Below, piece by piece: positions 29,131 through 57,221 of a stretch of 64,000 bases of DNA. The first letter of the stretch is position 1. Each line of letters starts with the position of its first letter. The translations under genes were made by a program, and so were the position numbers. Source of the stretch: Macrostomum hystrix (lineage: Eukaryota; Animalia; Platyhelminthes); contig CATNEN010000038.1 of NCBI GenBank assembly GCA_950097015.1, positions 8,308,001 to 8,372,000 on the forward strand. Reading direction: 5' to 3'. The notes beneath the pieces were generated by a model. That model worked only from the letters and a program-made list of their open reading frames with translations. It searched no databases and was not told where the DNA came from.

Positions 29131-29584
29131 GTACTCCTTCTGCAAGCGCTTCAGGTCTTTCTCGACGGTGTCGGCGTCCTCAGTGGCTGCGGCGGCGTCG
29201 GCTGCGGCCGCTTCGGCATCGGCGGCGGAGGCTGCGTCGGCGGCTGCGGCGTTGGCCTGTGTAAGTACGAGCTTATTGTGGGATTTTAAATTTGCTTAAA
29301 GATTTTTAAGAATTAATTTTGGCCATTGGCCTTCATGGTCATAAAGTTCATAAAAAGCGTTGAAAAAAAAGAAAAAAACAAAGCTCAACAGAAAATTTTA
29401 ATGGCAATCACATGTGTAAAAGTGCGTCGTGCTCATTTGACCCTCACAAGTGACAAGATTTTTCAGACTAGTCAGGTCAAACAACAAACTTATTTGGACC
29501 CATGAGAAATCCTACAATATATTTTTAAGCAAAATAAAAAATCGGTGCAATTAAAGTGCAAGCGTGGATGCTCGAAAGTCAACC
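29131..29584. repeat. 454-bp host duplication, copy 1 (copy 2 = 33742-34195)
   Basis: Apparently identical dynein exon/intron sequence (gtactccttc...gaaagtcaacc) on both sides of the gypsy element. Confidence 0.92.
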
Positions 29585-32500
29585 GTGGCGACGAGTGGCA
29601 GCAGTACCAGGAAAGACTGGAGCAGTTTTTCGAGGCCAATGATATCAAAGATGAGAAAAAGCGCGCCGTTCTCCTCAGTGTCTGCGGCAAGAAGACTTAC
29701 CAGCTAATAGCCAGCCTGCTAGCTCCTGGTACTCCGGCTGCAAGCAGCTATGCAGACATCTGCGAAACACTGAAGAATCACTTCGACCCCGAGCCACCCG
29801 AGATCGTTCTGCGATTCCGTTTCTACACCCGAAGTCGCCGTGCCGGCGAGTCAATTGCTGACTTCCTCGCCGACCTTCGCAGACTGGCCAGGGACTGCAA
29901 CTTTGGCAGCAGCCTGGACAGCATGCTCAGGGACAGGTTCGTGCTTGGCATCAACGACGACAACATCCAGCGGAGGCTGCTGTCAGAGCGGAAGCTTACG
30001 CTCGACACCGCACTGTCTCGAGCCCAGGCCGAAGCTTCAGCAGCCGAAGGGAACCTGATGGTGACCAAATCTTCGGCCAGCCAGGAGGCCTTCCAAATCG
30101 CCAAGCAGCCGGTCGCTAAGCGCTGTTTTCGGTGTCTCTCGCAGCGGCACGCGGCTGCCAAGTGCCCCTTCGTTGACAAAAAATGCTTCAATTGCTCGAA
30201 GCTGGGCCACGCGGCTGCTGCCTGCAAGTCGCCGGCTGCCACAAATCGTCGGGGCGATCAGGCCGTCAGGGAGGTCGAGCTGGAAGAGGAAGAGACGCAT
30301 TCACTGCACGTAATGGCTGAACGACGGAGAGGGAAGATTCCGCCGATCGAGACAACGGTGCTTATCGATGGCACGCCGGTGCGCATGGAGATTGACACCG
30401 GCGCGTCGGTCTCACTCATTTCGTCGGACACCTTCCGCTCAGAGCTGCGAGGACGGCCCAAGCTTGAGCCCGCCAACGCCCACCTGCGCACGTATTCAGG
30501 AGAGCCTGTTCCGCTGCTCGGCAGAATCATCGTCCAAGTGCGGGCGGCTGGAGCGGCCAAGGAGCTTCCACTGCTTGTCGTCAACGGCTCAGGTTCGAAC
30601 CTGATCGGCCGCGACTGGCTTGCTGACCTGCCTCTGGACTGGCGCAGCATCAAGCAGGTGACCAAGGACGGCGAGCACCCGAGAATCCGCGCCCTGCTTG
30701 ACCAGTACGCCGATGTTTTTGAGCCCGGACTCGGTAAGTGCAATGGGCCACCTGTACGGCTGCACTTAAAAGACGGAGCCCGGCCTCGATTTTTCAAAGC
30801 GCGCACCGTTCCCTTTGCTCTCAAAGCCAAGGTGGAGGCCCAGCTCGACAAAGAAATCGAGCAGGGCGTGCTCGTTCCCGTGAACAGCTCGGACTACGCA
30901 TCGCCGATCGTGCCGGTCCTCAAGTCCGACGGCTCGGTGCGCATCTGTGCGGACTTTAAGCAGACGGTCAACATCAACATCGAGCCTGACAAGTACCCGC
31001 TGCCACGCATTGACGAGCTTTTTGCCAAGCTGGCCGGCGGCCAAAAGTTCACCAAGCTCGACTTGTCGCAGGCCTACTCCCAGATGCCGCTTGACGAAGC
31101 AGCCCAGCAACTCTGCACCATCAACACCTCTAAGGGCCTGCTTCGGTATACCCGGCTGCCGTTCGGCGTCGCTCCAGCTGTCGGCATCTTCCAGCGGTAC
31201 ATGGACAGCCTGCTGCAGTCCATCCCGCATGTCGCCTGCTTCATTGATGATCTGATCATTACTGGTGCTGACGACGGAAGCCATTTACGCTCCCTAGAGC
31301 TGGTGCTGCAGCGACTGCAACAGAGCGGTCTGCGCTGCGGCCTCGGCAAGTGCAACTTCATGCAGGAGAGCGTCTGCTACCTAGGCCACAGGATCGACGC
31401 CGCAGGCCTCCATCCGCTTCAGGACAAGGTGCGCGCGATCGTGGACGCTCCACCACCGCGGAATGTGACGCAGCTCCGCAGCTTCCTTGGCATGGTCAAC
31501 TATTATGGCAAGTTCATGCCGAACTTATCTGCCGAGCTGGCATCGCTGCACCGCCTACTAGACCAGGGCGCCGAGTGGCGTTGGGGTGCCCCGCAAGACG
31601 CCGCGTTCAACAAGTGCAAGAAGCTCCTCAGTAAGGCGCCGGTCCTGGTGCATTTTGACGACAGCAAGCCATTGGTCCTGGAGTGCGACGCCTCGCCGTA
31701 CGGCATCGGCGCTGTCATCAGCCACCGGATTAACGGCATCGACCAGCCGATCGCTTTCGCTTCACGCTCGTTGCACGACGCCGAGACAAGGTATTCCCAG
31801 TTGGACAAGGAAGCCCTAGCAATAATCTTCGGCGTAAAACGCTTTCACTCGTACCTGTACGGCCGGAAATTCACACTCATCAGCGACCACAAGCCGCTGC
31901 TGGGGCTGCTGCATGAAGGCAAGCCGATTCCTGCGATGGCATCAGGCAGGATCCAGCGGTGGGCGCTTCTCCTGTCCGCCTACAGTTACACGATGGAGCA
32001 CCGGTCCGGCCGATCGCTGCTGCGAGCGGACGCGCTGAGCCGGCTGCCGCTTCCCGAGAGACCGCGGGACGCACCAGTACCAGCAGACGTGGTTCTCGTC
32101 ATGGACATGCTGGACGAAGGACCGGTCACAGCCGGAGACATTCGAGTCTGGACCCGGAAGGACCCGGTCCTTTCCAGAGCGCTGCACTTCACCGAATGCG
32201 GCTGCTGGCCGGAGCAGACGAGCCCAGAACTGCAGCCGTATCGATCCCGACGCGACCAGCTCAGCGTGCAGGACGGCTGTCTGCTCTGGGGCACTCGAGT
32301 CGTGGTGCCGCACGCCGGCCGGTCTGCGCTGCTACAGTGTCTGCACCAAGGACACCAGGGTGCGTCCAGAATGAAGGCGCTCGCTCGAAGTTTCTTTTGG
32401 TGGCCCAAGTTGGATGAGGCGATCGAGCAGCTTGCCAGTGACTGCGCGGACTGTCGAGAGCTGCAGAAGTCACCGGCACCGGTGCCGCTGCACCCATGGG

Positions 32501-33408
32501 CGTGGCCGGACAGGCCGTGGTCGCGCCTCCATATTGATTTTGCAGGCCCAGTCGAGGGCAAGATGCTGCTGGTGGTAGTCGATGCCCACTCCAAGTGGAT
32601 GGACGTGCATGTCATGACGTCCACAACTTCGGCGGCGACCATCCAGAGGCTGCGGGAGAGCTTCTGCACTCATGGGCTGCCAGACATCATCGTGACGGAC
32701 AACGGCCGCAACCTGGTCAGCGAGGAGATGGAGAAGTTCCTGCAGCAGAACGGCATCCGGCACGTGCGGACCGCGCCCTATCACCCGGCGTCCAACGGGC
32801 AGGCGGAGCGAGCGGTCCAAACGCTAAAGAAGTCGCTGGCGAAGCAGAAGAGCGGCTCGCTGGAGGGCCGGGTGGCGCGCTTCCTACTGACCTACCGCGT
32901 GACGCCTCACGCCACGACTGGCGCCCCGCCGTGTGAACTGCTGATGGGAAGGCGGCTGCGGTCCCTACTCGATCGAGTGCGGCCGGATCTTCCAGCGAGG
33001 GTGGCTCTCCAGCAAGCGATACAGAAACAGCAACACGACGCCAACGCCCGTGATCGCCACATCGAGGTAGGCGATGCTGTGGTGGCGAGAGATTTCGCGG
33101 CGGATGGCAGATGGAAGCCGGCAGTGGTGACTGCCAGCTCCGGAGCGGCGTCTTTCTCGTGCCAGTTCGACGACGGCCGGCAGGCTCAGCGCCACATCGA
33201 TCAGCTGCGCAAGCCGCTGTCAACCGCGCCAGCCGCTGCGGCCCAGGAGTCGGAAGCCGAGCCTGTCGCGGAACCGGCGGCAGCGGAAACCCAGACATCG
33301 GCTGCGGCAGCTGCGGTCGCCAGCGACACCGCAGACACGGGCGACCCGGTGCCGATTCGACGGTCAACCAGGCAGCGAGCTACACCGGACAGACTGAGCT
33401 ATTTTTGA
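29585..33408 (+). CDS. Gag-Pol polyprotein (2 CCHC knuckles, protease, RT, RNase H, integrase), lacking its native start
   Basis: CFRC..H....C and CFNC...GH....C knuckles; DTGAS; LPFG and FIDD; CDAS; HQGH..C..C; HIDFAGP, TDNG and NGQAER. Confidence 0.95.
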
Positions 33409-34195: not shown

Positions 34196-37100
34196 AGCCG
34201 TTGCGAGGTTTTACTCTTAAATTGCGAAAAGCAAGCCTGTCAAATTTAGTTTATTAAACAAGCAGGTTTACCATCATCAGCAATTACGATTTCGTCCTTT
34301 TTCTGCAAAAATGTTTTGAAAAAGATTTATGGAAAATTTAGAATTTAGACTACAAGAAGAAGTAGCTAAAACAAACACAATCATAGTTTCATGTTAGGGG
34401 GACCGATTTTGCTAGTCCTCTAAGCTAAACCAGACTATCAATTTTGGAAGGTCATCCAAGCTCACCTTTTCGTTGTCGTCTCGCTCCGAGCGCTCACTCT
34501 CCACAATCTCGCGCTCCAGAGTTCCGATTTTGTCTTTGGCATCCTTGAGCGGACCGCAGAGGCGGCTGTACTCGACAAGAGCGATGGTGTAGTGCACCAG
34601 CGTGGCTGCGTCCTCGCTACTGTACTTGGCCTGCGAAATGGTGATGCCGCGTGGCCCGCCGTCGCCAGGAGACTGATCTCGCCGACCACGAATCTTCTCG
34701 ATATTGTCGGCACCCTCCAGCAGCGAGCCCTCACCCGTCACGCCGAGCTGGCCGTCCTTGCTCTTTGCCAGGTAGCTTTCCACAGCTACGGGGCAGAGAA
34801 AAGGAATAAAAATAAATACAAAAAACTGCGCGCTCGCTTGGTGCAGATGCACACAAAAATTATCGTACTGCCAGGTACTCACTTCTGAGCACATCTTTAT
34901 CAAGGCCATCCAGCCAGCTGACATTTTGCAGCATCTCTACAAATTTAACAGAGTCGTTCATGCTCTGCTGCATCTGCTTCCAGGCTGCTCTGTCCACCTG
35001 AAAGGAAAATAAATGGTTTATCATTTAGCCTCGACGTTCGGAATAAGACACTTAGCTTTCTCTGTATTCTATAGTCTATTATCGGCGCACCTTTTCCTCC
35101 TTTTGACCCCTTCCGGTTGGCTTTGGCTGCGCCGAGCCAAGCGAAGTTCTGTCGCCTAGCAACCCGTCGGCATCCTTTCGCTTGTCGCCGCCAGCGGCGC
35201 CGGAGCCGCCGGCAGTAAGAGTTGGCGGCTTCTTACCAATGAGCACACAGACCATCTCCATGACCTGGCCGACCAGGGCCGGTGGATTCTGGAAGGCCCG
35301 GATTCGTTCGATGCAGTTCCGGTCGACCTTGTTGCTCCAGCTGGCCACTTCTTTGCGAGCGCTCTCAAGGCTGGCCTTGCAGGCCCGATAGGTCTCCTTG
35401 GCCGCCGCCAGCTCGTCTCAGGCCTGAGTCTTGCGATTCTTCATTGTCTCCTGGCGGATCTGCTCAAATTGGCGATCGTAGTCGTCGTAGTCTTCGTTGT
35501 TGAGCAGTTCATCCTGCTTGGTTTCCTGACGAATAGAGCGAGAGTGATTCTAGAGAATTTATCCGCAACTTGGCGAGGATATACGACTAGGGACTCCAGG
35601 TAATAAAACTCGCACTAAAGCCAACGATTGAGTTCAGGACCAATGATTTAGTTACAGGACGCAAAGTTACTAGACAAATAGCTCGTATATATTTAAGTAA
35701 CAAATATTGAGTCAGGGCTGAACGGACTGAGTTGTGGACCGAGATATTATACGAAGAAAACGAAGTCAGCATTGGCACTCACTTCCGGTTGCAGGTCGTT
35801 CATTTTCAGAAAGTGGGTCAATGACGAATTGTGATCAGTGCGGGAGCGAATTTTCTCCAGAACGGTGACCTTCTTTGTCAGCTCGGCCAGCATCCGGTCG
35901 GCCTCGGCGCGAACTTCCTGATAGTTGCGCAGCTTGGCAGCCCGCGCTGCTCGAATGGTCCTCTCATCGTGCCTGCTCTGCGCCAGGGTGGCCAGAGCTC
36001 GCCTGAGCAGTGTCAGCGGGTTGCGCCGCTCACCAGTCTTGCTGGAGTACAGGTAGTGAAACGCGAGCAAGAGGCGCCTGAAGTGCATCGGCCCGATCGG
36101 CACGGCATCAATGCAGGCAGCGTCTTCGCCTGAGCGAATATGACGACTGCGCAGGTGGTCCAGTAGCACCTGCACGCAATGCGAACAAAAAATTAGGCAC
36201 GTCAAACTCTGCATCGATTTGAGCACTAACGCTATTGACTGCATTAGACTCATCCCTCAGACTAGAATCCGCGTTGAAGTTATACAATATGCGAGTATAC
36301 AGCATGCCTACATCCGTGTTCCGGAGTGTGCATTGTAGTCGACTGAATGAGCAGAATTGCCTCTTCATTGGCAGGGGCTTACACAATGACTACTAAAGGA
36401 ATTGATAAGGTGAAGATGCAACTGTGTCAAGTGGCTCATCGTACTTTAGTAGTCATGAAACCACAGCATCCCCAAGCTACTGAATTCCCTATTTGGGGGC
36501 AGCGAACCTTCTGCGCATACGGTCGGTTTGGCACGCGCAGCGTCTCCTGCTTGGAGTGGCTGCGGCTCTCTTTGTACTTTGTGAGCTCGACCTCGAGCTC
36601 CTGGTCGCCCGCCCAGGGCACCTGACGGAATTCGCGAAGCACTAGCGAATGTGCCTGGGCGAAGGCGCGGCCCAGGGCGTCAGCGTCCTCTTTGCTGAGG
36701 TTCAGCTGCTGATTGGCGCCGAAGAAGTGCTGCGCCTCCTGCAGCAGCGTCTGCATAGACCAGTCGTTTACCCAGTTCACCTGGCTGTGCTTGAGCAGGC
36801 AGGGGTAGCTGGTGACGGCCGCGCACAGAAGAGGATCACTGGGAGGCAGACAGATGACAAAGTGCAGGTATTGCCGCACTCTGGACAGGTAGAACTTCAC
36901 CGGGTCGTTTAGCAGAGCCTGGTTCTCTTTCTTGATGGTTGGCACCAGGGACTGCATCAGGGTGTCCATCTCCTCGTTGGTGAAGAGCTGCGGGTGCTCA
37001 CCGCACGCAATGATGGAGTTGATGGCGTCCCAGTAGACGCTGTCCATCATGCAGCGGGCGGTGACGATCACGGCCACGTGGACGGCGTCCAAGCCGGCCA

Positions 37101-39911
37101 GGCGGAGAGCTCCGCGGAGACTGTCGAAGAAGGCGTTGCGCGATCTCGTGTCGGCCTCTTGAACCCGCATCTCCAGCATGAAGGCGGCCAGGCGGCACAA
37201 GGTGGACAGCTTGGTGCCGATGGAGCCTATTAACATCACGTGACCACGGTACGGGACGGACAGGGCGCGATGGACGCGAACAATCTGAGCGATAACGGTC
37301 TCTGAGAGAGTAACTTCGAGTGGTTCGTGCTTTTCTTCCTCGTTGTAGCGGGTCTGCAAACCAATGGGCGAGTGGCAAGTTCATTGATATTTTATTAGGG
37401 AGTAGAATAACTTTAAGCTTTTTTTGTTTCAACGGATTCACATGGACCGATAAATAATCCCCAAAAGACTCTGCTCACCTTGTAAATATCCAGGGTCTCT
37501 CTGAGCTCATCGAACGACTCAATCTTCGGCATGAGGCTGCTTACGCAGATGGAGGCTCTGTTGAACGACGAAGTCGGTCTAATGTTGAAACTCTGCACGT
37601 TCTTGTCAAACGTGGCGAACTGCTGGCTGAGCAGATCCACCGAGATGGACGGGAAGTGCTTGGCGCACAGCTGCTCGAGTGTCTCGTTGAACCAGAGCGC
37701 GTCGGCTGTGCGACAGACGCGATCGGCGAAGCCCCGGCGCACCTGGTATACCCAGTAGGGCACCAGGTCCGTCAGCTCGATGCGCCTCTCGTCTGGCAGC
37801 CTACGAAGGCACAGGAATGCGTCGCACAAGTCCTTCAGGTTGAACAGGTAGTGCCGCCGGCCAGGCAGCGGTGAAAGCTTTAGGGTGGCCTGGCAGCTCT
37901 CCAGCAGCTGGCAGGAGGCCTCCATTAGGCTAGCCAGGGCGTCCTGTTCAAGCGGCTGGCGATCATCGAAGTTCATCTGGCAGTGAATGAAAAACCAAGA
38001 CAATATAGTTTTAAATAAGAAACAATGCGTTCCTATTTAGTCAATCGGTTGAAAGTAAATCTTTGCCTATACCTGAGACTCAAGCACGCCGCGCACGACA
38101 CTTCTCAGCGCGTCCTTGGCCGGGGCGGGCACGTGCACGAGGTTGAAGTGCCGCAACAGACGGGGCGACAGCGACGGCGTCGGCACGGCCGGCGCGCCAC
38201 CAGTGGCAGCCGAGGCCACCACTGAGAGACCTTCAATCTGGCGCCACTCGTGCGGCCGCTCCTGAGTGACAAGCTGGTGACAGTCGCAGAGCTGGCGCAG
38301 CAGTTCTCCGGGGCGCTGAATGCCAAATGAGTCCGGTCTGGGGGCCGAGACGTCCTCGATGCACAACAGCAGCCGCTTGCCCTCCTTGGCTCCATAGACG
38401 AAGCCTTGTCTGGAGTGAGCAATTTGAGTTTGGAAATTACAATGAAAAAGCTAGAACTCTATCTTAATATATCGCTATCAGCCGCTAAAAGCAGTGAAAC
38501 CATGCGCGGCAGACTGAGACCGGTTCTGGGCTTGTTTGCCCTCGTCAGTCTGTCATAGCCGCACGGCTCTAGCCAGCTGACTGCTATTTACGCGTCCTTG
38601 CACATGACAACATTTTATAGACTGTCATGTGAAGAACTCGCGCTATGTTGACTCAGCGTTACTATACTCGAAAGTGGCAACGCTTTTCGACTCTAGTTCT
38701 AATGGCAAGGCCACACTCATTTTGGGGGTTGGACTTGTTCGGCAGGTTAGAGTTTACACTCCATGACGATGAAAAATTCTGAGCAGATGTACAGTCCGCT
38801 GTTCCTGAGTACGCCTCTATAATATGACGGCACAAAGGCTCACCTGTGCACAGTGTTGGCCTGCACAAACCGTTGCAGCGTGGCTGCCTCGGTGTCACCC
38901 GAATAGACCAGCTGGCGCAACAGCCGGAGCTGGGAGTCCTGCCGTTCGGCGAACTGCCGGCCAAGCAGCGTCTTGCCGCCGCCTCGAGGTCCGACCAGCA
39001 GCACCGACCGCTGCGCCTTGTAGGACAAGTCCAGCAGCTGCTGCACCCGGATGGTGTCCACTGTCTCGACCAGCGCCTGACCGGACAGCGCCAGGTCGTC
39101 GGTGTTGATGAGCTCCGGTACTCGTGACGTCCACGGATCCCATTCGCCGCTCTCATCAACGTAATAATCGTAGATGCAGATTTCCCGATCGTCATCCGGG
39201 AGTCTGGAAGTGTTTTGAGCTGGGATTTCAATATTTTGTAGTCTTCGATGCTTCACGCTGACTGGCCCAGATAAGCGTGGACAGAGGTAAATTAGCAAGG
39301 ATTGATTTCCAAGCTTGCAAGACGCAAAATCAACTCAAATTATACAACTAACAGGTCACATTTTTTTCTAATTAAAAAAAATCAGCTAATAATTTACTAC
39401 TGATGAAAATAAATCTTTATTATTATTAACGTACTTTTGCTCAAATACGGCTGTTACCTTCTTTTGATAATGCCTTTACTTTCGTTTAGGACACATGTTT
39501 TTTCGCGAAAATACCATCAGAAACAGTAATCATATTAGCACAAAAGTATTTTCGCAAAAAGACTACATTCACCTTCGTTTGAGAATACATATGTACTTTC
39601 GCGAAAATACGTCTGGAATAATCAACAATAATTTAAGTGCTTTCTCAACATACAGATTAAAATTGTTGACATAAATCAGAAATCAATTAATTATTCGTGT
39701 TTATGTTCATATGCTGTTCGAAACTACCTACTCTACTATGAGTAGACAATATAGCAACGGTAAATATATTATGAGTTCAATATTATGCTATTTCGCCATA
39801 GACAAACATTGAATGATAGTTTATGTGATTAAACTGTCGTACGGGTCACGATAGCAGCTTAAGTCAGAAGCCGAGCGCGCTCGCTTGCAAATCTTTGTAA
39901 AATTTCTTCTG

Positions 39912-39932
39912 TTATAAGCAGTATATAAGCAG
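39912..39932 (+). promoter_or_regulatory. Candidate TATA box (duplicated tataagcag) of the ZnF-recombinase gene
   Basis: ttataagcagtatataagcag lies ~35-50 bp upstream of aaaATGg at 39964. Confidence 0.45.
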
Positions 39933-39963
39933 TTCAGCAGATAATAATAATTCAGCAGGTAAA

Positions 39964-42900
39964 ATGGACGCACAAACTAATTGTTTCCTATGTCAAATGA
40001 CGATTCTAAGTTCTAATTTGCGACGGCATTTCATCCGGAACCACAAGGACTTTGTCGAGTCTTTTGATTGGGATTGCGTACCATTAAGCAAGCGACCAGC
40101 TGAATCTGCGTCCTATGAAGTCAATGCCATGAATATATGGAAGATTGTCCGGTTGCAAAAAGCGGGAGTCGATAATGTCCTTTCGCCATGTCCGCACTGT
40201 GGCAAATATGTGCGTCATCTGAAAAGGCACATTGCACGCCCGTGTAAGGGTCTACCGGCTGCTCAAGACATAGCGGTGGTATCCGATAACGGCAGTGTTT
40301 CATCGGATGACAACGAACAGTATGCCGTAGTAGACGTAGGTGAGCTGTATGCGAGTACTTCTGCAAACAAACAGACGATCACGCAACAGTCAACTAAACG
40401 TTTATGTGACTTGACATCTGGTGTTCGTCAAACTACGTCCCCGCATGCGCAACCGGGTCCATCCAAAGTACAATCTTCATACATGGCCGAGATTGTCAGT
40501 AATGACTTGGATCGACTGCAAAGCAATTATAGCGACGTACCTGTCTTAATCCAAGCCAAACATGAAATGGCAATGATCGGTAAGTGCTATAAACTATTAC
40601 CTATTATTTCGAGGAAACTGAGTTACTGAGTATTCATATTTTTATTTTCACCCCATTTTCGTCCGAAAAGAATATATCAATGGACTGCGTCTGAATGCGG
40701 CCGGCCTAAACGAGATTCTGCAGAAAGCCCACAACGCTGAGCATCCACGCGTTAATAGCATGTGTACTGGCTTGCAGAATCTGGTCAATCTGACAGAAGC
40801 AATCCTCCAGTATACGTCAGACTATGTTCCGGTCGGAGTCACCAATGCTGTCAGTTTGCTGAACCCTGTCAGTCAGCGACAAGCAGAGACTCAGACCTCA
40901 AAATCTGACGTGGAAAATACTGATGATTCTGTCAGTGACGACGAGCGATCGGCCAAAGAGCAGCTTGTATTGCAACGGAGGCACAAGAAGTCTCGGCTTG
41001 TTGTTTTCGACGGCCCAGACTACCACGTTGCATCTGAACACATGTACAAGCAACTAGACAATGTCGGCGACATCTGGTTCAAGGGTCATTGCTGTGTAGA
41101 AGAGAACGCATCGCATGTTAGCCGTAGGAAAGCAATCCAGCGAAACTATCATGCTACAACTAGTCGTCTCCTACAGGCAATCAATGTCACAGTCGAGATG
41201 TGGTTCATCAATCCAGCGCGTATCCAATTCGATTTGGACGAGATGGTGAAGCGCCATATCTGGAAACCATCGACTGTTGGACAACGAATGAACGAGCTTC
41301 ATAACATATTGAGCGGTGCGAAGAAGTTTCTAGCAGCCAACAACGACTTCGGTGCTCCTAGTGTTATGAACGCGTTCCAATTGACCTCGCCACCAGATGG
41401 ATTGTTTGCCAACGTGCATGCCGACATTGTCAAGGCCGCGTCAGAATTGCCTGCCTGTCCTGACCCGCGCAAAGATGGTATTCTCTATCATCAGACTGCA
41501 GTATCTGGTCTGTTGACTAGCCGCATCGAATCAATCATGGTGAGCAGTATTGTTGTGTCGCATGTTGTATTACCATGTTAGTTAATATATGTCATGAACA
41601 ATTGTAGAAGCTACTGCATGCATTTCTCTTTAATAACCCTTTAACATGTACAGGCTTGCATTGGATTGATTCGTCAGCGGCAAGAGAATATTTATCACCT
41701 GCGCGATGACGAACGCCAGCTGTCCTACACGGATAAGTTCCTGACCGCTGACGAATGGCGCATCATTCACGGCCGGCTAGACTGCCTGATCGATATGGTC
41801 GCCAAACATTCGTGGTCTCATCTACCCGTGAAGGGCTACTGGGGTCGCATTGGACAATGTGCACGTCGAATGGCCAACACTGTCGCCAAATGGAATGCAT
41901 TTATTATGCCGATCACTCGTGAACTGGCCTTCTTCTGTGCAGCAATTGTCCATGCCAACCGACTACGTCCATGGGTCGCGATTCGGCGTTGCTATTTGGA
42001 TGCTGCACTCAATAGTGGTGTATCAACGTCCTCCACCATCACAGTCCTGCCGCCTACCAAAGTGGCACACAAAAAGGGCGGTCGTGGTAAAGGTGCAAGC
42101 TGGACTGCGCCACGCAAAGTCGGCGAATGTCTACTGCAATGGATAGACAACTTTCTATTGCCATACTTCGCCGAGTGCAACATCCGTGTCAGGCCAGGCA
42201 AATGTCTGCTGTTTCCTACGCATCGTGGCAAGCAGCGTGACTCGACAAGTTTCAGCACGCTTGTCAAGCAGGGCGCCGAGTTGGTCATCGATCGGCCCTA
42301 TCGGATGGGCGATGGTCGTCGAAATGTACTGTCGGCATATGTGCATGCGCATCCCGACAAGCTAGACCAGCTGGTGCCTCTGTACGACACATCTCGCAAC
42401 TGTGTCGTCAATGCGTATGGACGCCTGGCAAAACAGCAGGCCAATCTGATGGTCGCCGACGACGTCAGAGGATGCTTCGAGACGTTCTGTCACAATCGAC
42501 CACTTGATCGTCGACATCAACGACGTCCAACAGCCGAAAACGACACGAAGCGTCGTCGCTCTGCCTGTAGCGTTGATCTGGACGCAACCAATTCATCGGC
42601 TGCATCTCCTCTACCTGCTGATGACATTGTGATGCCACATAGTCAACGCATACGCAAGCGACGCACTCGACGGTCGTCCATTTGCAAGGCCACTGACAAG
42701 AAGCGACCTCGAATGTCGACAATGCGACCCGCTACGGTTAGTCCTAGATGTTCAACAACGGACAACACCGAGTCGACAAAGCCGGCCATCGATTCAGCAA
42801 CACCATCGCCTTTTTCGTCTACATCGTCTAGACGACGCAGTCTTAGTCAACCGCCGATGCATGGAGCATCAGGAAGACAAGGCAACGTTCACGACGATAT

Positions 42901-43048
42901 CGACGAAGAAGGTGATGAAGGTGAACAACAGCACGTCAGCAATGACAATGAGATCAGCTCGGATTCTGAGCTACTCATGGTTCGTCGAACGGCATACAGG
43001 ACGCGATCTGGGCGCCTGATCAGTTCGAGAACTAGACTGGACATCTGA
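39964..43048 (+). CDS. 959-aa C2H2 zinc-finger + divergent tyrosine recombinase (exons 39964-40579, 40671-41539, 41654-43048)
   Basis: Two short GT-AG introns (phase 1 and phase 0) join three ORFs in frame. Zinc fingers: CFLC..HFIRNH and CPHC..HIARPC. YR-like motif order: RLRP, TKVAHK, LLFPTHRGK, GDGRR, LYDTSRNCVVNAY. Confidence 0.65.
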
Positions 43049-43414
43049 ATGCTCATATTGTCCCAGTCGTGTCACCTGACTTGATATGTGCTGATTGTCT
43101 GATTTGCCAAACTATTATCAATTGTGTCAATTGTGATACCCCCACTAATACCCGTCCCTTTACAACCGAGAATCTCATATGTTCTGTTTGTTGCTCTCTT
43201 ATATATTGTTAAGATGCTTATGATTATTGTCAACACTGTGATTATTTCGTTAGTAAATAAATTTATTAACAAATGAAATCATTTGATTATCATCTGATTA
43301 AACTAAGATTAAACTATTCTCGTTTTCTTAAAAGCCGCAGATACACAGTATATATTGTATTTTCACGAAAAAAAATCATTCGTGATATGTGCTGTAAAAA
43401 ACTACAAGTCACTT

Positions 43415-44426
43415 TGTCTGAGAATACGTATCTGCATTCGCGAAAATACCATAATATGTAGTCATGCACACTACTTCAAGAACTTTTGCAAAAATGCCGC
43501 CAACTACTTTTGTTTAATAGCATAGCAGTATTTTCGCGAAAATACCATAAGATGTAGTCATGCACACTACTTCAAGAACTTTTGCAAAAATACCGCCAAC
43601 TACCTTTGTTTAATAGCATATCAGTATTTTCGCGAAAATACCATAAGATGTAGTCATGCACACTACTTCAAGAACTTTTGCAAAAATACCGCCAACTACC
43701 TTTGTTTAATAGCATAGCAGTATTTTCGCGAAAATACCATAAGATGTAGTCATGCATACACCTTCAAGAACTTTTGCAAAAAATGCCGCCAACTACCTTT
43801 GTTTAATAGCATAGCAGTATTTTCGCGAAAATACCATAAGATGTAGCCATGCACACTACTTCAAGAACTTTTGCAAAAATACCGCCAACTACCTTTGTTT
43901 AATAGCATAGCAGTATTTTCGCGAAAATACCATAAGATGTAGCCATGCACACTATACTTCAAGAACTTTTGCAAAAATACCGCCAACTACCTTTGTTTAA
44001 TAGCATAGCAGTATTTTCGCGAAAATACCAAAGATGTAGTCATGCACACTACTTCAAGAACTTTTGCAAAAAATACTGCCAACTACCTTTGTTTAATAGC
44101 ATAGCAGTATTTTCGCGAAAATACCATAAGATGTAGCCATGCACACTACTTTAAGAACTTTTGCAAAAATACCGCCAACTACCTTTACTACCTTTGTTAA
44201 ATAGCATATCAGCATTTTCGCGAAAATACCATAAGATGTAGCCATGCACACTATACTTCAAGAACTTTTGCAAAAATGCCGCCAACTACCTTTGTTTAAT
44301 AGCATATCAGTATTTTCGCGAAAATACCAAAGATGTAGTCATGCACACTACTTCAAGAACTTTTGCAAAAATGCCGCCAACTACCTTCGTTTTGAGAACA
44401 TAACAGTATTTTCGCGAAAATACTGT
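43415..44426. repeat. ~96-bp tandem array (~10 units), each with the perfect palindromes GTATTTTCGCGAAAATAC and TTTTGCAAAA
   Basis: Palindrome cores near 43437, 43531, 43627, 43723, 43820, 43916, 44014, 44110, 44215, 44313 and 44409. Confidence 0.95.
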
Positions 44427-45134
44427 ATTTACTTTCTGTTTCGAAGTCGTTATATTTTTTCACGATAACACCTATAAATGAATTTTATTAATCAATACTT
44501 TGACACTTTGCATATACATTCGATTGAATTCGTAATACTATATATAGAGAAAAATTGCATATAAGACCCAGTTGAGGACGAGCTTTTGTATGCCACAGCT
44601 GAAGGAAGCAGATCGAGGCGTCAAAACGTCAGAATGTAAAATAATACAATCACTATGATTCATTATGCAGTTATTTTATAAATCTACGTCTGATTATATC
44701 GTAACTATTTGAGGTACAAATTAGTGTTATGTTGTATTTGATTGAAATTATACAGTAATCTTTTCGCCAAAATACAATCATAAACAATAATCAAAACTAC
44801 GTTAAAGCATTCTTGTTTATATTTTTATGCATGCAAACGCTCAATACATTTATTGTATTCGTGTTGGGCTTCATTAATCAATCAAGTGACTACAATTAGC
44901 AAGAAATCTGTTTTTTTTGCAACAGAAGTAGCAATTACCTACTTCACAACAATAGAAGCTCAAAACTGAGCATATAACAATGCTTTTATTTGTATGAATA
45001 ATTATAAAATTGCATACAAAAACAGCTGAAAGACAGACTAGACTGACCGATAAAAAATATAAAATATAGTTGATAAAATGGCAGCATGCAGGCAGTTTGG
45101 TGTAAAAAACCTGCTAACAGCACCGTCTTGTCGC

Positions 45135-45783
45135 TCATACTCGCCGGTCGGGGTGATCGCCAAACACATTGCGTATTGGGTGGCATTGTCCATCGCATTG
45201 GTAGTCGGTACTGAGGGAATGACCAATGAAGATGGCAACTACCGGACGCTTGTGCCCATCAGGTGTCGGTTCTAATCGGCGCTGAAAGTCCATCGAATAC
45301 GCACTGACCGGAGCATGCCCAGCAAGCACTAACAGTCGATTGAGCCAAGAGACGTGTCGAATAGCCTTGTATTTAGCATTGACTTCAAAAGTGTCTCCAT
45401 TGACCAAACGAAGTAGTGTGCACATGACTTCAGATGTGTCATCAAACAGTTGCGGGCGTAGCTCGTCAATAAACATGGCAGTGTGTATAGTCTCGCAGAG
45501 CTTGTCAAACATAAACGTGTTAGACCGCTTCTGCACCTGGATATTCAGCACTTTCGTAGAACCGAGATGGCTTTGCACAGAGTGGGTCTTCCCAACGCCA
45601 GACGGGCCGTATAGATAGACGACACCAGTTGGCAATTGCAACGCGCTGCACACAGCCTTTACAGTTGGGCTTTACAGATCTAAAGTAGTCCACGATCCTA
45701 GTCTGGCGTAGACCATTACAATCCGATGTAGCAATGCTGGCATCCACACGAGCCTTCTTACCACGGCCACGAAATGCTGACAT
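45135..45783 (-). CDS. SF3 (viral-type) helicase/ATPase with a frameshifted N-terminal basic + PIP-box segment
   Basis: Walker A YLYGPSGVGKT, Walker B MFIDE, B' FEVNAKYK, C-like LVLAGH and Arg-finger FQRRL. The upstream ORF 45520-45783 supplies the ATG in another frame. Confidence 0.7.
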
Positions 45784-46149
45784 TTCAAACTTGAAGTCGA
45801 GGCGTAGGAATTAACTCGTAAATGTGGTTGATCGATCGGTCAGTCAGTCAGTCGGTCACAAAGTATCTGTTAACCGCGCTCCGTCTTAGATAGCTCACTT
45901 TGCAACTGTACTGGACTGTAGTTCTAGGTCTGGCTATAGACCAAACTTTTTCGCGAAATTTCATATATGAATATTATTCAGCAAAAAATTTTTTTAACAC
46001 TGCGCAAATACTAATCGATGAAATGTCTATGTCTATTTCGCGAAAATACCATCTAAACTATCACAAGTATATAGACTAGCCATGTTAATTCAATTACTTT
46101 CGCAGTATACTTTACTACTTCAGGTGCAAGCAGCACTACTTCAAGTACT

Positions 46150-46976
46150 ATTGTCACATTCTTTCTCTTATTATTTCTCGTTGTGTAATTTTGTGATTAT
46201 CAAACGCCAACTTTTCAACATCTACCATAGACTATGGTGGAACTGCGAGTTTATTTTTCATATCAACGAGAAATCAGCTTCAATGGTTAAGCAATGAACA
46301 GTTTACAGTTTTTAGTTGTTTATAGTTGCAATTCTCAATGACGCAGATCTCTCTAACCATTCAAGTTGAAAGTGCAGCCAGAGAAATGACAATCCGTGAA
46401 GATAGTTGAGACGTTCTGCCTACTAAGTGTAATGTTCTGGTTACTCACGTCCATCGTGCTTGACGATCCAGCGTTAGATGGCTGATCAGTCCTAACCAAT
46501 TCTGTGTTCGTACGAGAATCACTTGATTGCAAAGCTTCCCCCACAGTCGTAGCCATGTCTCGCAGCGTGTGGTCACGTTTCCTCGATAGATACCGCCGTA
46601 CTGTCGACTCAGATTGATGTCCCGTGATATTCATGATGTCGGACAGAGTATAGCCAGCTTCGTGTAGATCAGCCGTCCTAGTTACTCGAATGCAATGGTT
46701 CGTATACTTTTTGCTGAGCTCACACAGGGTGCTTAATCGAGTCATGAACGATCCTAACCAATTGATTGGCTTCGCCACTCGTGACTTTGAGCATTATCAA
46801 AGCCTAAAACCATAGACACAACTAACCATTGATATGATATGATTATTCTCGTTTTCTCGTTGATATGAAAAATAAACTCGCAGTTCCACCATAGTCTATG
46901 GTAGATGTTGAAAAGTTGGCGTTTGATAATCACAAAATTACACAACGAGAAATAATAAGAGAAAGAATGTGACAAT
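46150..46976. repeat. ~124-bp inverted repeats (46150-46273 / 46853-46976), with a second IR pair (~46768-46830 / ~46974-47037)
   Basis: Reverse-complement matches were read directly. The ORF track gives the same peptide (SHSFSYYFSLCNFVII...) on both strands. Confidence 0.9.
46353..46778 (-). pseudogene. Crypton-type tyrosine recombinase, C-terminal fragment
   Basis: KKYTNHCIRVT...IMNITGHQSESTVRRY is the H-x-x-R / GH-x-S / Y signature of Crypton (KCTD1/ZMYM-related) YR domains, with a typical F..C.F tail. The N-terminal part is missing. Confidence 0.85.
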
Positions 46977-47309
46977 GGTTAGTTGTGTCTATGGTTTTAG
47001 GCTTTGATAATGCTCAAAGTCACGAGTGGCGAAGCCACGAGTGTCATTTGAGCATTATCAAAGCCTAAAACCATAGACACAATATTATTGTCTCATGATT
47101 TCTACACAAAACATATGCGTATTTCACACTGATTTGCTGTGCTCTTTCTACGAAGTCGAAATGTGAGTTGACCAAGGCCAAGGGGGCCAAGGGGGCCAAG
47201 AAACCAAGAACCAAGGGACCAAGGCAAGAGCTACATGTGCGAGGACACGTAAATGAAATATTAATCCAAAAATAAAAAATATACTTTTTTCTACAGAGGA
47301 AATGGATTC

Positions 47310-47600
47310 CTAGCGCTGTGATTAAAGCGTCGACTGAGCTCACTGCTGAAAGGTCAAGGGTTCGATTCCCGTCTCCACTGGAACATTTTGTGTCCTTTAG
47401 CAAGACACGTAACTCTACATTGCTTCAGTTCACCCAGCTATCAAATGTGTACCAGCATTAGGTAGGGTAATCGAGGGTGGGTGTGGCGTCCCCCCAGTCC
47501 ATGGACTGAACGAGGCCTTCAGATGCGCCACGCAATAGCTGCGGCTGTGCACTGTCGGCTGCACATGCGTGTGACCCAATTGGGGCAAGTTGTAATCAAT
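47310..47600 (+). mobile_element. SINE family 1 copy
   Basis: B box gggttcgattcccg and the shared body (cccagtccatggactgaac...gcaatagctgc). Confidence 0.8.
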
Positions 47601-48330
47601 TTTCATCCATTTTTAATAAGCATTTAATGATCCATTGTTTTAATATTCTGCAAATGTTTCCGATTCTCATTTCATAACCACGAATTGTTATAATCAGATG
47701 GTAGAATTCCAGTTCACACACACTAAAAAATTCTGAACGCCATTACAAGCATTAATCTTGATGTTATTAATTAGCTGCTCATGCAAAAATCCTGTTCTTT
47801 GCTTTAACTTGATAATAATTATTGAATTTTCTAAATAAACACGTGACCAAGAATCGAAACACAATTTCAGCTGCATACGCCCTTTTATTTTCCTAGTCCA
47901 TACTGCAAGCGAGGTCTCGTCAACTAAACTTTAGCTAGGTATACTGTAATTCATCCAGAATGGCATTCGTATGCATATTATTTCAGAAGGATATGAGAGC
48001 ACGTCTTAAGCAGTGAGGGCACCTCTCAGAATGCGCAAGGCCAACAAGGTATTAAAGGGGTAAGCGCACAGAGAAAAATTGTTTCTGTTCTCGACCGCTA
48101 GCCAAAAATACTCTCACTGACACTACAGGTTGCTATGCCAACATTCAACATCCCTGCATCAAGGCCGATTGTGATTTGTTTTCTGCTTGCGGCCTGGCTC
48201 GCAGGTGAGATAATTGATTCGATACAACTTGTATGCGTACAATGCGTTGAGCTAGAAAATAATCAGGTGGGATAATTAGTAGTAGTAGTAGTAGTACTAG
48301 TAGTAGTAGTACTAGTAGTACTAGTAGTTG

Positions 48331-48580
48331 TAGCCTAGTGGTTAGGGCGTCGGACTCACGACTTGAAGGACTCGGACTCACCACGTTCACCCAGCTGTTA
48401 AATGGGTACCAGCATCAGCCGGGATAATTGAAGGTGGGTGTGGCGTCCCCCCAGTCCATGGACTGAACAGCCGTACGCAGCATTCAGATGCGCCGCGCAT
48501 TAGCTGCGGCTGTGCTGTCGGCTGCACATCTGACCCAATTGGGGCAGGTGTAATCAATTATTATCTATTATTATTATTAC
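48331..48580 (+). mobile_element. SINE family 1 copy (B-box region deleted), flanked by (AGT)n microsatellite
   Basis: A box tagcctagtggtta, the shared body and a (TTA)n tail. Confidence 0.8.
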
Positions 48581-48904
48581 TAGTAGTAGTAGTAGTAGTC
48601 GTAGTACCAGTACTTAAGTACCAGGCCAATTATTTTCCGAAAATGAAAACACATCTCCCGCATTGTCTTACGGAAGTTACGCATTAATTATATAACACAG
48701 TCCATTGCGTCTATTTTTTCATATTGTGTTTTAAAAATGTTGTGTGGCTATTCCATTAACATGATCCTAACGAACATATTCTAATTAACATGTGCTCGTA
48801 GCTCGTAGATTGTATAAGCCTACAGATCTAGCTGAGCACAGTCATATACCATCTAAGCTCAGAACGCACACACAAGTTCTGCACACACAAATGATGTTCC
48901 GCAG

Positions 48905-49159
48905 AACCCGTCACAGCTGCCAACTGCTCTGCCATCACCTGCTACAATGGCGGCACGTGCAACATTTACACAGACAGCCCGCTCTGCATCTGCCCGATGC
49001 CCTACATCGCACCGTACTGCATTGCGGCTGTGAACTACTGCAATACAGCGCAGCCTGACAAGGGCATTAACGACCTTCCCGTCTGTCAGAATGGCGGCAC
49101 CTGTACTATAACATACTCGGATTCGTATTTTCACTGCGCATGTCCAACTGGCTATTCAG
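48905..49159 (+). CDS. Isolated exon encoding two EGF-like repeats (phase 1-1)
   Basis: ttccgcag|...|gtgaga. Translation: CSAITCYNGGTCNIYTDSPLCICPMPYIAPYC...VCQNGGTCTITYSDSYFHCACPTGYS. Not in the ORF track. Confidence 0.75.
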
Positions 49160-50029
49160 GTGAGACTTGAGCACTTACTTACTCACTTACTTGATGCACA
49201 CCCGCCCCACCCCCATACAACGCCTCACACCCGGCCCAATGCACAAACACAAACAAGAACAAGCAGACATGCAGAAGGCAGGGGTTAAGCTATTTTAAAT
49301 TAGCTTTGGTTGCACAGAATAAGGTGCATCTCCGCAAGTCACTACTTGGCAGACCCCCAACCAAGCCCCGAAATAATCGTGACTTGGAGGGAGGAACGAA
49401 CCAGCGACCATTGGAAATTGAGGCAGCGACTCTAGCCGCTGACCCACTCACCCCCCTGAGACTTTGAGCACACTTGAAGCCAGGTTTTTTCGGAAGCAAT
49501 AGAAAATTATGAACCTTCCGATTTCCGTCAGGACTACGGTGCAACGTCACAAAAAATGCGGCCTTGAATTTAGGTAAGCTGGGGCTGTTGCACCTACTGC
49601 CTGTTGGGGCATTGTACAGAATTGCTCATCTTCAATTCTCAGATTTTAAGCTAGCTGAAGGTCCGATTTCAGTCATCGCTGCCGCATTCAGTACAGTGCT
49701 TGTTGCTGCTCTCGTCAGCTAAGCTGCTGGTTTAACTTGCTAAAAGCACACGTGAGTTAAGCAAAAGTATTATATACTACTGAAACTTTGACCGAATTGA
49801 ATCGTTAACTGCTGTTCGAAATTTTTCAGTCCGGCCTGTTGGAAGCGAAAGCTATGAAAAAAGTTCTGCTTCAATGGAGCCGTTTCAGCTATTGACAAAT
49901 TGTAAAAATATTTTGTGAAATGCGAGTGTATTCTTAAAACTCCAGTACTTAAAGTTTATTTTCGAATAAAAGGCCTGTCCTTTCGTAGTTTTACATTCTT
50001 CTGCTGCAGCATACGGCATTCGTACTAAG

Positions 50030-50335
50030 ACACTCTACTCAGTAATCTACTTACCCTACCAAGTCGCCCTACTCACCCTACTCAGTCACCTACTCACTCT
50101 ACTCAGTTATCTACTTTCCCTATTCAGTTATCTACACACCCTACTCAGTTACCTACTCACCCTACTCAGTCACCTACTCACCCTACTCAGTCACCTACTC
50201 ACCCTACTCAGTTATCTACTCACCCTACTCAGTTACCTACTCACCCTACTCAGTCACCTACTCACCCTACTCAGTCACCTACTCACCCTACTCAGTCACC
50301 TACTCACCCTACTCAGTCACCTACTCACCCTACTC
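50030..50335. repeat. 21-bp minisatellite (cctactcagtcacctactcac)n
   Basis: Tandem copies, resuming briefly after the SINE at ~50640. Confidence 0.9.
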
Positions 50336-50341
50336 TATCGT

Positions 50342-50635
50342 TGTGGTTAGTGCGTCTGACTCACGACTTGAAGGTCGGGGGTTCGATTTCCGACTCCACT
50401 GGAACAATTTGTGTCTTTAGCAAGACACTTTAACTCTTTATTGCTTCAGTTCACCCAGCTGTTAAATCCGTACCAGCATCAGCTGGGGTAATTAAAGGTG
50501 TGTGCGGCGTCCCCCAGTCCATGGACTGAACAGCCGTACGCAGCCTTCAGATGCGCCGCGCAATAGCTGCAGCTGTGCTGTCGGCTGCACATCTGGCTCA
50601 ATCGGGGCAGGTGTAATAAATTTTTATTACTATTG
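50342..50635 (+). mobile_element. SINE family 1 copy
   Basis: gtggttagtgcgtctgactcacgacttgaaggtcgggggttcgatt head plus the shared body. Confidence 0.8.
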
Positions 50636-51265
50636 CTATTCAGTCACCTACTCACCCTACCCTACAATGTATTATTGTTATACATAAAGCTAAATAATAA
50701 TATTCTACCTAAGCTGACTTAGGTAGAATATTAGGTAGATAAGCGCCGACACGCACCCCAGCATATTTGTGACTATTTTTTAATCAGGACGAATAAATAA
50801 AACGCTACGACTTCGTTTTTGATGCCTACTACTATACTACTACTAGTAGCTACTACTAGAACGTTTTTATCACTAGCTTGGGTTTCTACATTTGTCAGTC
50901 AGTCGCGGTTGCCACACCGTTGACACGCAGACGCTAATGAATTTTTTCTCGGGACGGACTTGGGTCCATGGACAGGACAGACTTAGGGCTCGTCCATCGT
51001 ATTAGCCAGGAACATTATCAGGCAGGCAAAAGCTAAGACTAAAGCTTAACTTTGGGTTATTGTGCTAGCCAGTCCTTGGCTTTGAGTGGCTAAGTTGCAG
51101 GGTCGTGTGTAAAAATGAGCAGAAAGCGTCTGATTTTGGCGATGAGTCTCATTAGCGTTCATAGTAGCACCTCTCTAACACCTCTGTAGCGTTAAAATCA
51201 GGAATCCCATTGAGAGGTGCGTCTCGAACTATTCGCTAGTTAAAGTCGCAGTCTAATATGGAAGT

Positions 51266-52993: not shown

Positions 52994-53241
52994 TGTAGCA
53001 GCAAATTCACTTCTTTCTTTTAACTCTTAATATTTAAAGATTCAAATGGTACTTTTATTTCCCCCCTTACCGCTAATTTGTCTATGACCCTTGTTATCGA
53101 TAGGTACAGTTGCCCGGTTAAGACTTAAATGTAACCCCACGATAAAACTAAATAAACAAGCTCAAGCTTTTGCCGACTCTTAAATTTAACAGCAACATTT
53201 GTAGCAAGTCAGCTACAAAATTGGTAGCAGAGCGTTTCATC

Positions 53242-54096
53242 ATGCCAAAAACCAGGAGATACGAACCAGGCACAGCAGAAGCCCAGCGTCAACAGCGGCA
53301 ACCCGATGAAACGCCTCAAATGCCCGAGCGACAAATCACACAGCACGCAGTCAAACCGCCCGCGTTCTATCGCAAGTCCCCAGAAATATGGTTCCGTCAG
53401 TTAGAAGCCCAGTTCACGTTAGCCGGCATCGTCAATCCGACAACCAAGTTCCACCACACACTGGCCGCTCTACCCGAAGACGTGGCTTGCTCAATCGATC
53501 TGGATACGGGAGACTATGCGTCACTTAAGTCGGCGGTGCTCGAATCGTTACGCGTAAACCGGCACCAGCGCATCGAAGAGGCACTGGCTGCAGTTGAACT
53601 CGGCGACCGCCGTCCATCGCAACTGGTTAACGACATCAAGCGCAAGTTCGGCGAAGTCGGTCTGCAAGTCGATGATAGCATCGTCAAGTCTCGGCTCCTG
53701 TCGGCACTCCCGACCCACATCCGTTCCGCATTAGTCGGACACGAAGACGCGCCGCTGGATGCTTTCTCTAAAATCGCCGACAGCATGCTGGCCGTGTCAG
53801 CCAGCACAACGCCGTTCGCCCCAATCAACCGGGCCATCGCACCCGGCCAGTTGTCCGCAGGAAACAAGAAAAGTCCGTTTCGAGGAGCTAGACGCGATGA
53901 TTTTCAAGCCAACCGAAATTCTCTCCGCCGCCCTAAAATCTGCAACGGTCACCTGTACTACGCCGCGGAAGCTCGCACCTGCCGACCGTGGTGTCAGTGG
54001 CCTGGACCGAAGCCGACGTTAACACTCGCCAGCCGCCAACCTACTCCGACTCAATCCCGCTCAAGCAGCCCAACGCCGACAGCGGCGTCAAACTAG
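53242..54096 (+). CDS. Gag with CHCC motif
   Basis: [30 protein letters not shown] and [18 protein letters not shown], typical of the CsRn1 clade. Confidence 0.9.
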
Positions 54097-57000: not shown

Positions 57001-57221
57001 TCACATTGGAAATCAACGGCAAGCCTTCTGTAGTGTCTATCGATCGAGTGAAACCAGCTACACTCCCAGCACCGGTACCAATTAGCAAAGCACCAGCAAC
57101 TACTGTAACACCGGAAAACCCACCGGCAGCAAACATACGTGCTAAAACCGCTTCCCACGTTCGTTTTTCCACAGAACCATCTGTTAAACTGTTTTACGCA
57201 ACTGAACCATTATTAACCTAA
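53988..57221 (+). CDS. Pol (protease, RT, RNase H, integrase) in the -1 frame relative to gag
   Basis: VDTGA, RPCGDYR, MPFG, YIDD, TDAS, HPG..C..C, HIDLVGP, TDQG, NGIVER and GPY. Confidence 0.95.

Follow-up and report, generated by a model that had tools for sequence, protein, structure and literature searches.

A 64,000-nucleotide stretch of the Macrostomum hystrix genome (contig CATNEN010000038.1 of assembly GCA_950097015.1, positions 8,308,001 to 8,372,000; hereafter the window) carries a gene for a predicted tyrosine recombinase (YR)-like protein of 959 amino acids (aa). Its three open reading frames (ORFs), joined over two introns, form a single open frame from an ATG at 39964 to a stop at 43048. 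The gene lies in a unit of approximately 7 kb marked out by an 18-bp palindrome, together with a convergent gene for a superfamily 3 (SF3)-type helicase, which stands between a ten-unit palindrome array and a right-hand pair of palindrome cores. Features are collected in table 1, and all positions are those of the window.

Table 1. Features of the YR-like gene, the helicase gene, the palindromes and their surroundings.
Feature	Position	Strand	Details
Probable 5′ untranslated region	39873..39963	+	cDNA 5′ end near 39873 (X2 loose end); other contigs start at 39897
Exon 1	39964..40579	+	616 nt; C2H2 finger 39982-40047, C2HC finger 40189-40245, low-complexity linker
Intron 1	40580..40670	+	91 nt, GT..AG, phase 1
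Exon 2	40671..41539	+	linker, then conserved helical region ~41009-41539, candidate core-binding domain
Intron 2	41540..41653	+	114 nt, GT..AG, phase 0
Exon 3	41654..43048	+	predicted YR catalytic domain to ~42520, then basic/acidic tail
R598	41960	+	conserved first Arg
K635	42071	+	conserved Lys
R717	42317	+	D715-x-R717-R718, conserved second Arg
T741	42389	+	occupies second-His place in register with XerC
Y750	42416	+	conserved Tyr
Left degenerate array copy	39351..39610	.	cores 39501, 39597 (96 bp apart); aligns to 96-bp unit with score 117 (shuffle maximum 55)
Ten-unit array	43437..44423	.	96-bp units, each with palindrome GTATTTTCGCGAAAATAC (exact in nine); 15 matches, 0.01 expected
Right core pair	45949..46045	.	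cores 45949, 46036; region 45860-46160 scores 67 (shuffle maximum 59)
SF3-type helicase domain	45138..45670	-	Walker A, Walker B, arginine finger; His at motif-C Asn position
Helicase 5′ part	45676..45783	-	basic stretch and PCNA-binding (PIP) consensus 45682-45705; covered by X3, X5 contigs
ATG with TATA-like stretch upstream	44590..44604	+	X10 and X3 both depart from the window at 44604, sharing one loose end
Canonical YR gene, 3′ half	46150..46766	-	H-x-x-R, G-H; Pfam PF00589 E 5e-6; cut at 46766
Nested inverted repeats	46767..47082	.	65-nt and 127-nt arms; truncate canonical YR
Dynein heavy chain gene, 3′ part	34400-39203	-	next upstream exon (loose end 39203 in X5, X6) not in window
EGF-repeat exon	48895-49167	+	ORF scan
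Rhomboid protease exons	59374-61450	-	ORF scan
Two Gypsy-type long terminal repeat retroelements	29506-33408; 53152-57221	+	long open pol frames
SINE-like dispersed repeat	47350-47570, 48340-48560, 50350-50620	.	many X1, X5 contigs match

A preliminary description of this DNA had joined the three ORFs into one spliced nuclear gene and proposed that transcripts be searched for both junctions. An open frame is by itself weak proof of splicing, as 16 of 63 AG-acceptor pairs tried reach the same stop. Contigs from sequencing runs X1, X2 and X3 (study P1) and X5 and X6 (study P2), all from organism A, together with X9 (organism B) and X10, could be placed on the region. Intron 1 was skipped exactly in all five organism-A runs, across two studies, and intron 2 in four of the five (X1, X2, X3 and X5), with a flank of 255 nt in X5 and of 20–28 nt elsewhere; X6 and one X2 contig retained intron 2 unspliced. 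X9 and X10 showed no splice joint, but no listed piece of either spans an intron; their near-identical pieces are not taken as a sign of transfer or habitat. The runs are labelled ‘DNA?’ or ‘?’, and none of those listed is recorded as RNA. We read them as cDNA because X1 and X5 likewise skip a host dynein intron (38410–38843, CT..AC) and because X2 has a loose end at 39873, which we take to be a template-switch oligo. That the skips come from intronless DNA copies is ruled out, since the dynein intron is skipped too. The three ORFs are thus one real spliced gene. At its 3′ end (43019–43204), an X3 contig has the same 3′ stretch but a different 157-nt 5′ part, and contigs of X2, X3 and X6 depart from the window at 39865–39933; these gene ends are common to related genes or copies.

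A search of exon 3 against 1.84 billion representatives gave four matches. Two of the matched clusters comprise seven Macrostomum lignano records; over a 156-aa core these have five different sequences, a number for which hidden polyploidy or assembly redundancy could partly account. The other two matches are unnamed fragments, one reaching over the first half of the domain and one over the second. The M. lignano protein P0008, of 1084 aa, aligns with exon 1 (36% identity over 94 aa, E 3e-19), exon 2 (32% over 226 aa, E 2e-30) and exon 3 (E 1e-75), with 43% identity between the window's YR-like domain and that of M. lignano. Because P0008 matches all exons in order, it independently supports a single 959-aa protein. 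It also keeps the Cys/His sets of both zinc fingers, which Pfam does not recognise (E 0.48). A word-index protein search found no exon 3 match among longer proteins and none for P0008 500–945. The M. lignano fragments P0001, P0002, P0005–P0007 and P0009 bear the UniRef label ‘Ras-GEF domain-containing’; Pfam finds no Ras-GEF domain in the full-length relative P0008, and the label looks like a mis-annotation.

To judge from its sequence, the recombinase gene appears to be under purifying selection. Of the 35 listed coding differences that separate transcripts from the window, 18 are synonymous against an expected 23% (p 3e-4; 0.013 at an expectation of 32%), as are 10 of 11 between aa 600 and 780; it tempers this result that the lists run only to the best-supported rows, with 91 and 108 more rows beyond them.

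The alignment of the predicted active site has four rows from three lineages (23–44% identity), and each key position is covered by three of them. Kept in all three covering rows are R598, K635, D715, R717, R718, T741, S742 and Y750, so that the Arg-I, Lys, Arg-II, Tyr order of the YR superfamily is present and conserved (R598, K635, R717 and Y750). Two further superfamily residues, the His in H-x-x-R and the His/Trp in the last box, are absent: the first position is G, S or M and the second is T in every covering row, both His being lost in all covering homologues. The motifs named in the preliminary description lie where it placed them, and its readings of G-D-G-R in place of H-x-x-R and of LYDTS with the Tyr at 42416 coincide with the conserved R717 and Y750. 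Its other two catalytic candidates have to be moved. R600 (41966) is not conserved among homologues, the conserved Arg being R598; K631 of TKVAHK is Glu in two homologues and differs in transcripts of all five same-organism runs, the conserved Lys being K635. Both His positions vary in active relatives, with Trp in Cre and Flp and Lys in topoisomerase IB (PMC2747268). Catalysis by R598, K635, R717 and Y750 without either His is a probable reading of the alignment, and YR identity is favoured because the residues conserved across distant homologues are those that a YR needs.

The exon 3 domain is likely to adopt a YR fold, favoured by three weak lines of evidence. A search with language-model features placed two clusters without a name highest, at 0.95, followed by integrase-named clusters at 0.94 and 0.93. 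When aligned by hhalign with 40 XerC-like integrases, LFPT, G714–R717 and D740–Y750 fall on their XerC counterparts, and the end of the exon 2 helical region falls, not significantly, on the end of the XerC core-binding domain. Foldseek ranked a staphylococcal integrase first (E 0.66 in the PDB; best E in BFVD 0.14), its highest probabilities (0.10–0.23) were all for YRs, and on realignment of the candidates 16 of 50 rows were YRs (integrase, Cre/Tre and XerH; Z 3.0–4.1). Only these 16 aligned at least 125 residues (model ~23–278), the next best reaching 114. In a profile ranking of 32 YRs against 119 other ORFs, the area under the curve (AUC) was 0.66, with a maximum of 0.62 in 20 shuffles.

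Several results weigh against a YR fold. The language-model matches have 138–162 of 256 features in common; the hhalign score of 17.4 (P ~0.1) was equalled by 6 of 60 column shuffles; and the reversed-profile control gave an AUC of 0.61. The AlphaFold2 model from the four-row alignment had a predicted local confidence (pLDDT) of 55, with one of five models usable and a pLDDT below 50 for model residues 102–152, which include R598 and K635; single-sequence AlphaFold2 gave 35. No YR fold or profile match was significant (Foldseek, VIA Z ≤4.1, hhalign), and a wide structural search listed three-helix bundles only (Z 5.2–6.7), a YR not being excluded thereby. Pfam, PHROGs, NCBIfam, PDB-sequence and phage tblastn searches yielded no YR family for exon 3 or its homologues, and Pfam gave no YR or DUF3504 match for exon 3, P0008, P0003 or P0004. 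With every direct fold and profile test below significance, the motif order might be a coincidence in a novel helical DNA-binding protein; we consider this very improbable, given that language model, hhalign and realigned Foldseek each put YRs first or in register and that the distant homologues conserve just the residues of a YR site. The divergent YR lineage proposed at the outset thus stands as regards the loss of both His, and its YR identity is favoured; the structural comparison proposed with it gave YRs as the only whole-domain matches, but none at a significant level.

The 10-bp core of the palindrome, TTTCGCGAAA, has 14 exact copies in the window (0.11 expected), all within 39501–46045: two left of the recombinase gene, ten in the 96-bp tandem array and two on the right. 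Neither these palindrome arrays nor the convergent helicase gene figured in the preliminary description. The ten-unit array is a candidate origin or recombinase-binding array. No exact match to the palindrome was found in IMG/VR.

The helicase gene has a match to the PIP-box consensus near its start, for which the rough chance is 0.001 in 40 aa. Among 26 candidates the sole match was to M. lignano (P0010), with 45% identity, close to the 43% of the YR-like domain. His replaces the motif-C Asn in both known members, the window gene and P0010. Look-alikes include CRESS Rep helicases. No locus relative was found for the helicase alone; its alignment gave six weak loci, of which L001 is a CRESS genome, and PF00589 was absent from the three that were checked (L002, L005 and L006).

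At two places this copy is interrupted, and other copies have additional sequence there. At the first, 44604, the window frame from the ATG at 44590 closes after 22 aa, and a further gene may be missing here. At the second, the helicase gene is broken at 45670/45671, and X2, X3 and X5 contigs stop at 45670 and continue in sequence absent from the window. Contigs that match at less than 95% identity and have different break points point to a family of copies; the window holds a deleted derivative with an intact recombinase gene. An X2 contig that skips 367 nt across the helicase gene (45374–45742) without splice-type ends is a different deleted copy.

We tentatively favour, with slightly less than even confidence, an explanation in which a multicopy DNA element that carries a helicase uses the 959-aa protein as its active tyrosine recombinase. 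The recombinase would excise the element as a circle, the PIP-box SF3 helicase would copy the circle from the palindrome array with host PCNA and polymerase, and the copied circle would reinsert via the recombinase; the circle itself, the origin role of the array and the binding of PCNA are all putative. That recombinase and helicase travel together is quite likely. An undescribed kind of self-copying mobile DNA is likely as well, because the closest relatives of both genes are in a flatworm. No description of this YR-like and helicase combination was found in the literature searched (most subscription journals and Repbase were outside its scope). It is more doubtful that the element represents a new class: a self-replicating element of eukaryotes that has no capsid and amounts to an integrating nuclear plasmid in animals. 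Its His-less D-x-R-R/T-S YR would act on the spacer-less palindromes, and an SF3 helicase derived from CRESS viruses would recruit PCNA and copy the excised DNA with neither an HUH nuclease nor its own polymerase.

Some observations speak against such an element. The window showed neither element ends nor a target-site repeat or empty site, and the candidate end regions (the ends being undefined) have only AT-rich 8–9-mers in common. The palindrome lacks a spacer, unlike a standard YR crossover site with its 11–13-bp arms around 6–8 bp (PMC3212892). The adjoining canonical YR, which as initially proposed has no recognisable similarity to the 959-aa protein (BLASTP E 1.6), could be the real integrase. 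Its membership of the element is unsettled. A 1660-nt X2 contig runs 1041 nt beyond its break; an X10 DNA contig departs from the window at 46153 with a 25-nt loose end, which suggests that the canonical YR is not always attached and is a separate insertion.

Spacer-less palindromes recall telomere-resolvase sites, and the helicase is CRESS-like, yet no HUH (H-hydrophobic-H) motif is present in P0010 or in the window pieces, the middle of the window gene being absent from this copy. On these grounds the protein might instead be a YR-fold nicking initiator or hairpin resolvase working on the palindromes in place of an HUH nuclease, leaving integration to the neighbouring canonical YR; the sequence of repeat family D7 (46134–46153), which runs up to the 3′ end of that gene, would fit. 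Origin-nicking YR-like relaxases, in which the fold is put to non-standard use, exist in bacteria (MobK, TcpM and MpsA; PMC8152469), although these are conjugation proteins and are likened by description only. We think this explanation unlikely: the missing middle of the helicase could hold a nuclease and P0010 may be an incomplete model, textbook YR chemistry leaves a 5′-OH rather than a primer, and the X10 departure points to the canonical YR as a separate insertion.

The loss of both His positions, the zinc fingers and the long disordered tails would also suit a YR-derived, catalytically dead DNA binder, whether it serves the palindromes as an origin-binding or transcription factor or is a host gene domesticated in the manner of the DUF3504 proteins. 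Purifying selection is compatible with any function, and YR domestication is well documented (PMC3212892). In the domesticated DUF3504 genes of that source the Tyr and second Arg are gone, whereas the present protein and its homologues retain both Arg, the Lys and the Tyr in every covering row (3/3); moreover, the gene sits inside the repeat-delimited unit, and its GC content at third codon positions (0.51) matches that of the helicase gene (0.53), not that of a dynein exon (0.77). We regard a dead binder as distinctly unlikely.

A remnant of a larger, capsid-bearing endogenous DNA virus that used this YR to integrate, in the way of nimaviruses and Polinton-like viruses, seems improbable. The palindrome arrays do recall the homologous regions of large arthropod viruses, and the loose end at 44604 looks Arg/Gln-rich by eye, as capsid N-termini often are. 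Nimaviral YRs likewise combine a C2H2 finger with a YR domain in an animal host, some being multi-exon, with a reduced set of key residues (5/7 located; PMC10871703). Their source is large crustacean viruses, whose insertions lie in telomere repeats or 28S rDNA (PMC10871703); no nimaviral YR was seen among the four exon 3 representative matches or the named cluster members, and no homologue cluster has a crustacean or viral name. Polinton-like viruses and group 2 Maverick-Polintons have an SF3 helicase replication gene, often paired with a YR integrase in the former, but carry capsid and packaging genes, and their helicase is generally fused to a polymerase/primase (10.64898/2026.06.19.733378); none of this was seen in the present copy. 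Among the 21 + 14 window ORFs scanned there was no capsid, packaging ATPase or polymerase gene (sequence being missing at 44604 and 45670). Neither the palindrome nor the YR-like protein and its homologues had an IMG/VR relative, nor the proteins a JGI metagenome relative, with patterns that reach close relatives only.

As an active recombinase of a helicase-bearing element, the protein would most resemble the Cryptons (PMC3212892; Glomhoppers, PMC13465315), whose eukaryotic YR gene likewise contains introns, which lack a reverse transcriptase and visible terminal inverted repeats, and for which a circular intermediate is proposed. Cryptons keep an R-H-R-Y tetrad and 4–6-bp terminal repeats (PMC3212892, PMC13465315), whereas the present unit has neither His and possesses a helicase gene and palindrome arrays in its interior; the word ‘helicase’ occurs 0 times in the main texts of these two sources. 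YR retroelements of the DIRS/Ngaro type differ in carrying reverse transcriptase and RNase H, neither of which is found in 39300–47100 of this deleted copy; the reverse transcriptase matches belong to the two Gypsy elements elsewhere. From CRESS DNA virus Rep, with its similar helicase domain, the gene here differs in that no HUH nuclease is seen, a PIP box leads the protein and His stands at the motif-C Asn position.

Few YR elements occur in eukaryotes, and this transcribed, selected lineage of predicted YRs was missed by standard profile libraries, its relatives being labelled ‘Ras-GEF’ or ‘C2H2-type’ in UniRef. If the favoured explanation is true, it would widen the known active-site chemistry of YRs and add another recombinase to those available, together with an 18-bp candidate site; if the recombinase travels with the SF3 helicase, the pair would link transposons, plasmids and small DNA viruses. 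The readings are testable in the laboratory flatworm M. lignano, where a relative is present.

The upstream dynein exon is not in the window and EGF-repeat and rhomboid exons lie to the right, which places the element either in an intron of more than 24 kb or at a locus break. No Rfam match was found in 39000–51000. Minisatellites are dense across the window, with 82 Tandem Repeats Finder rows.
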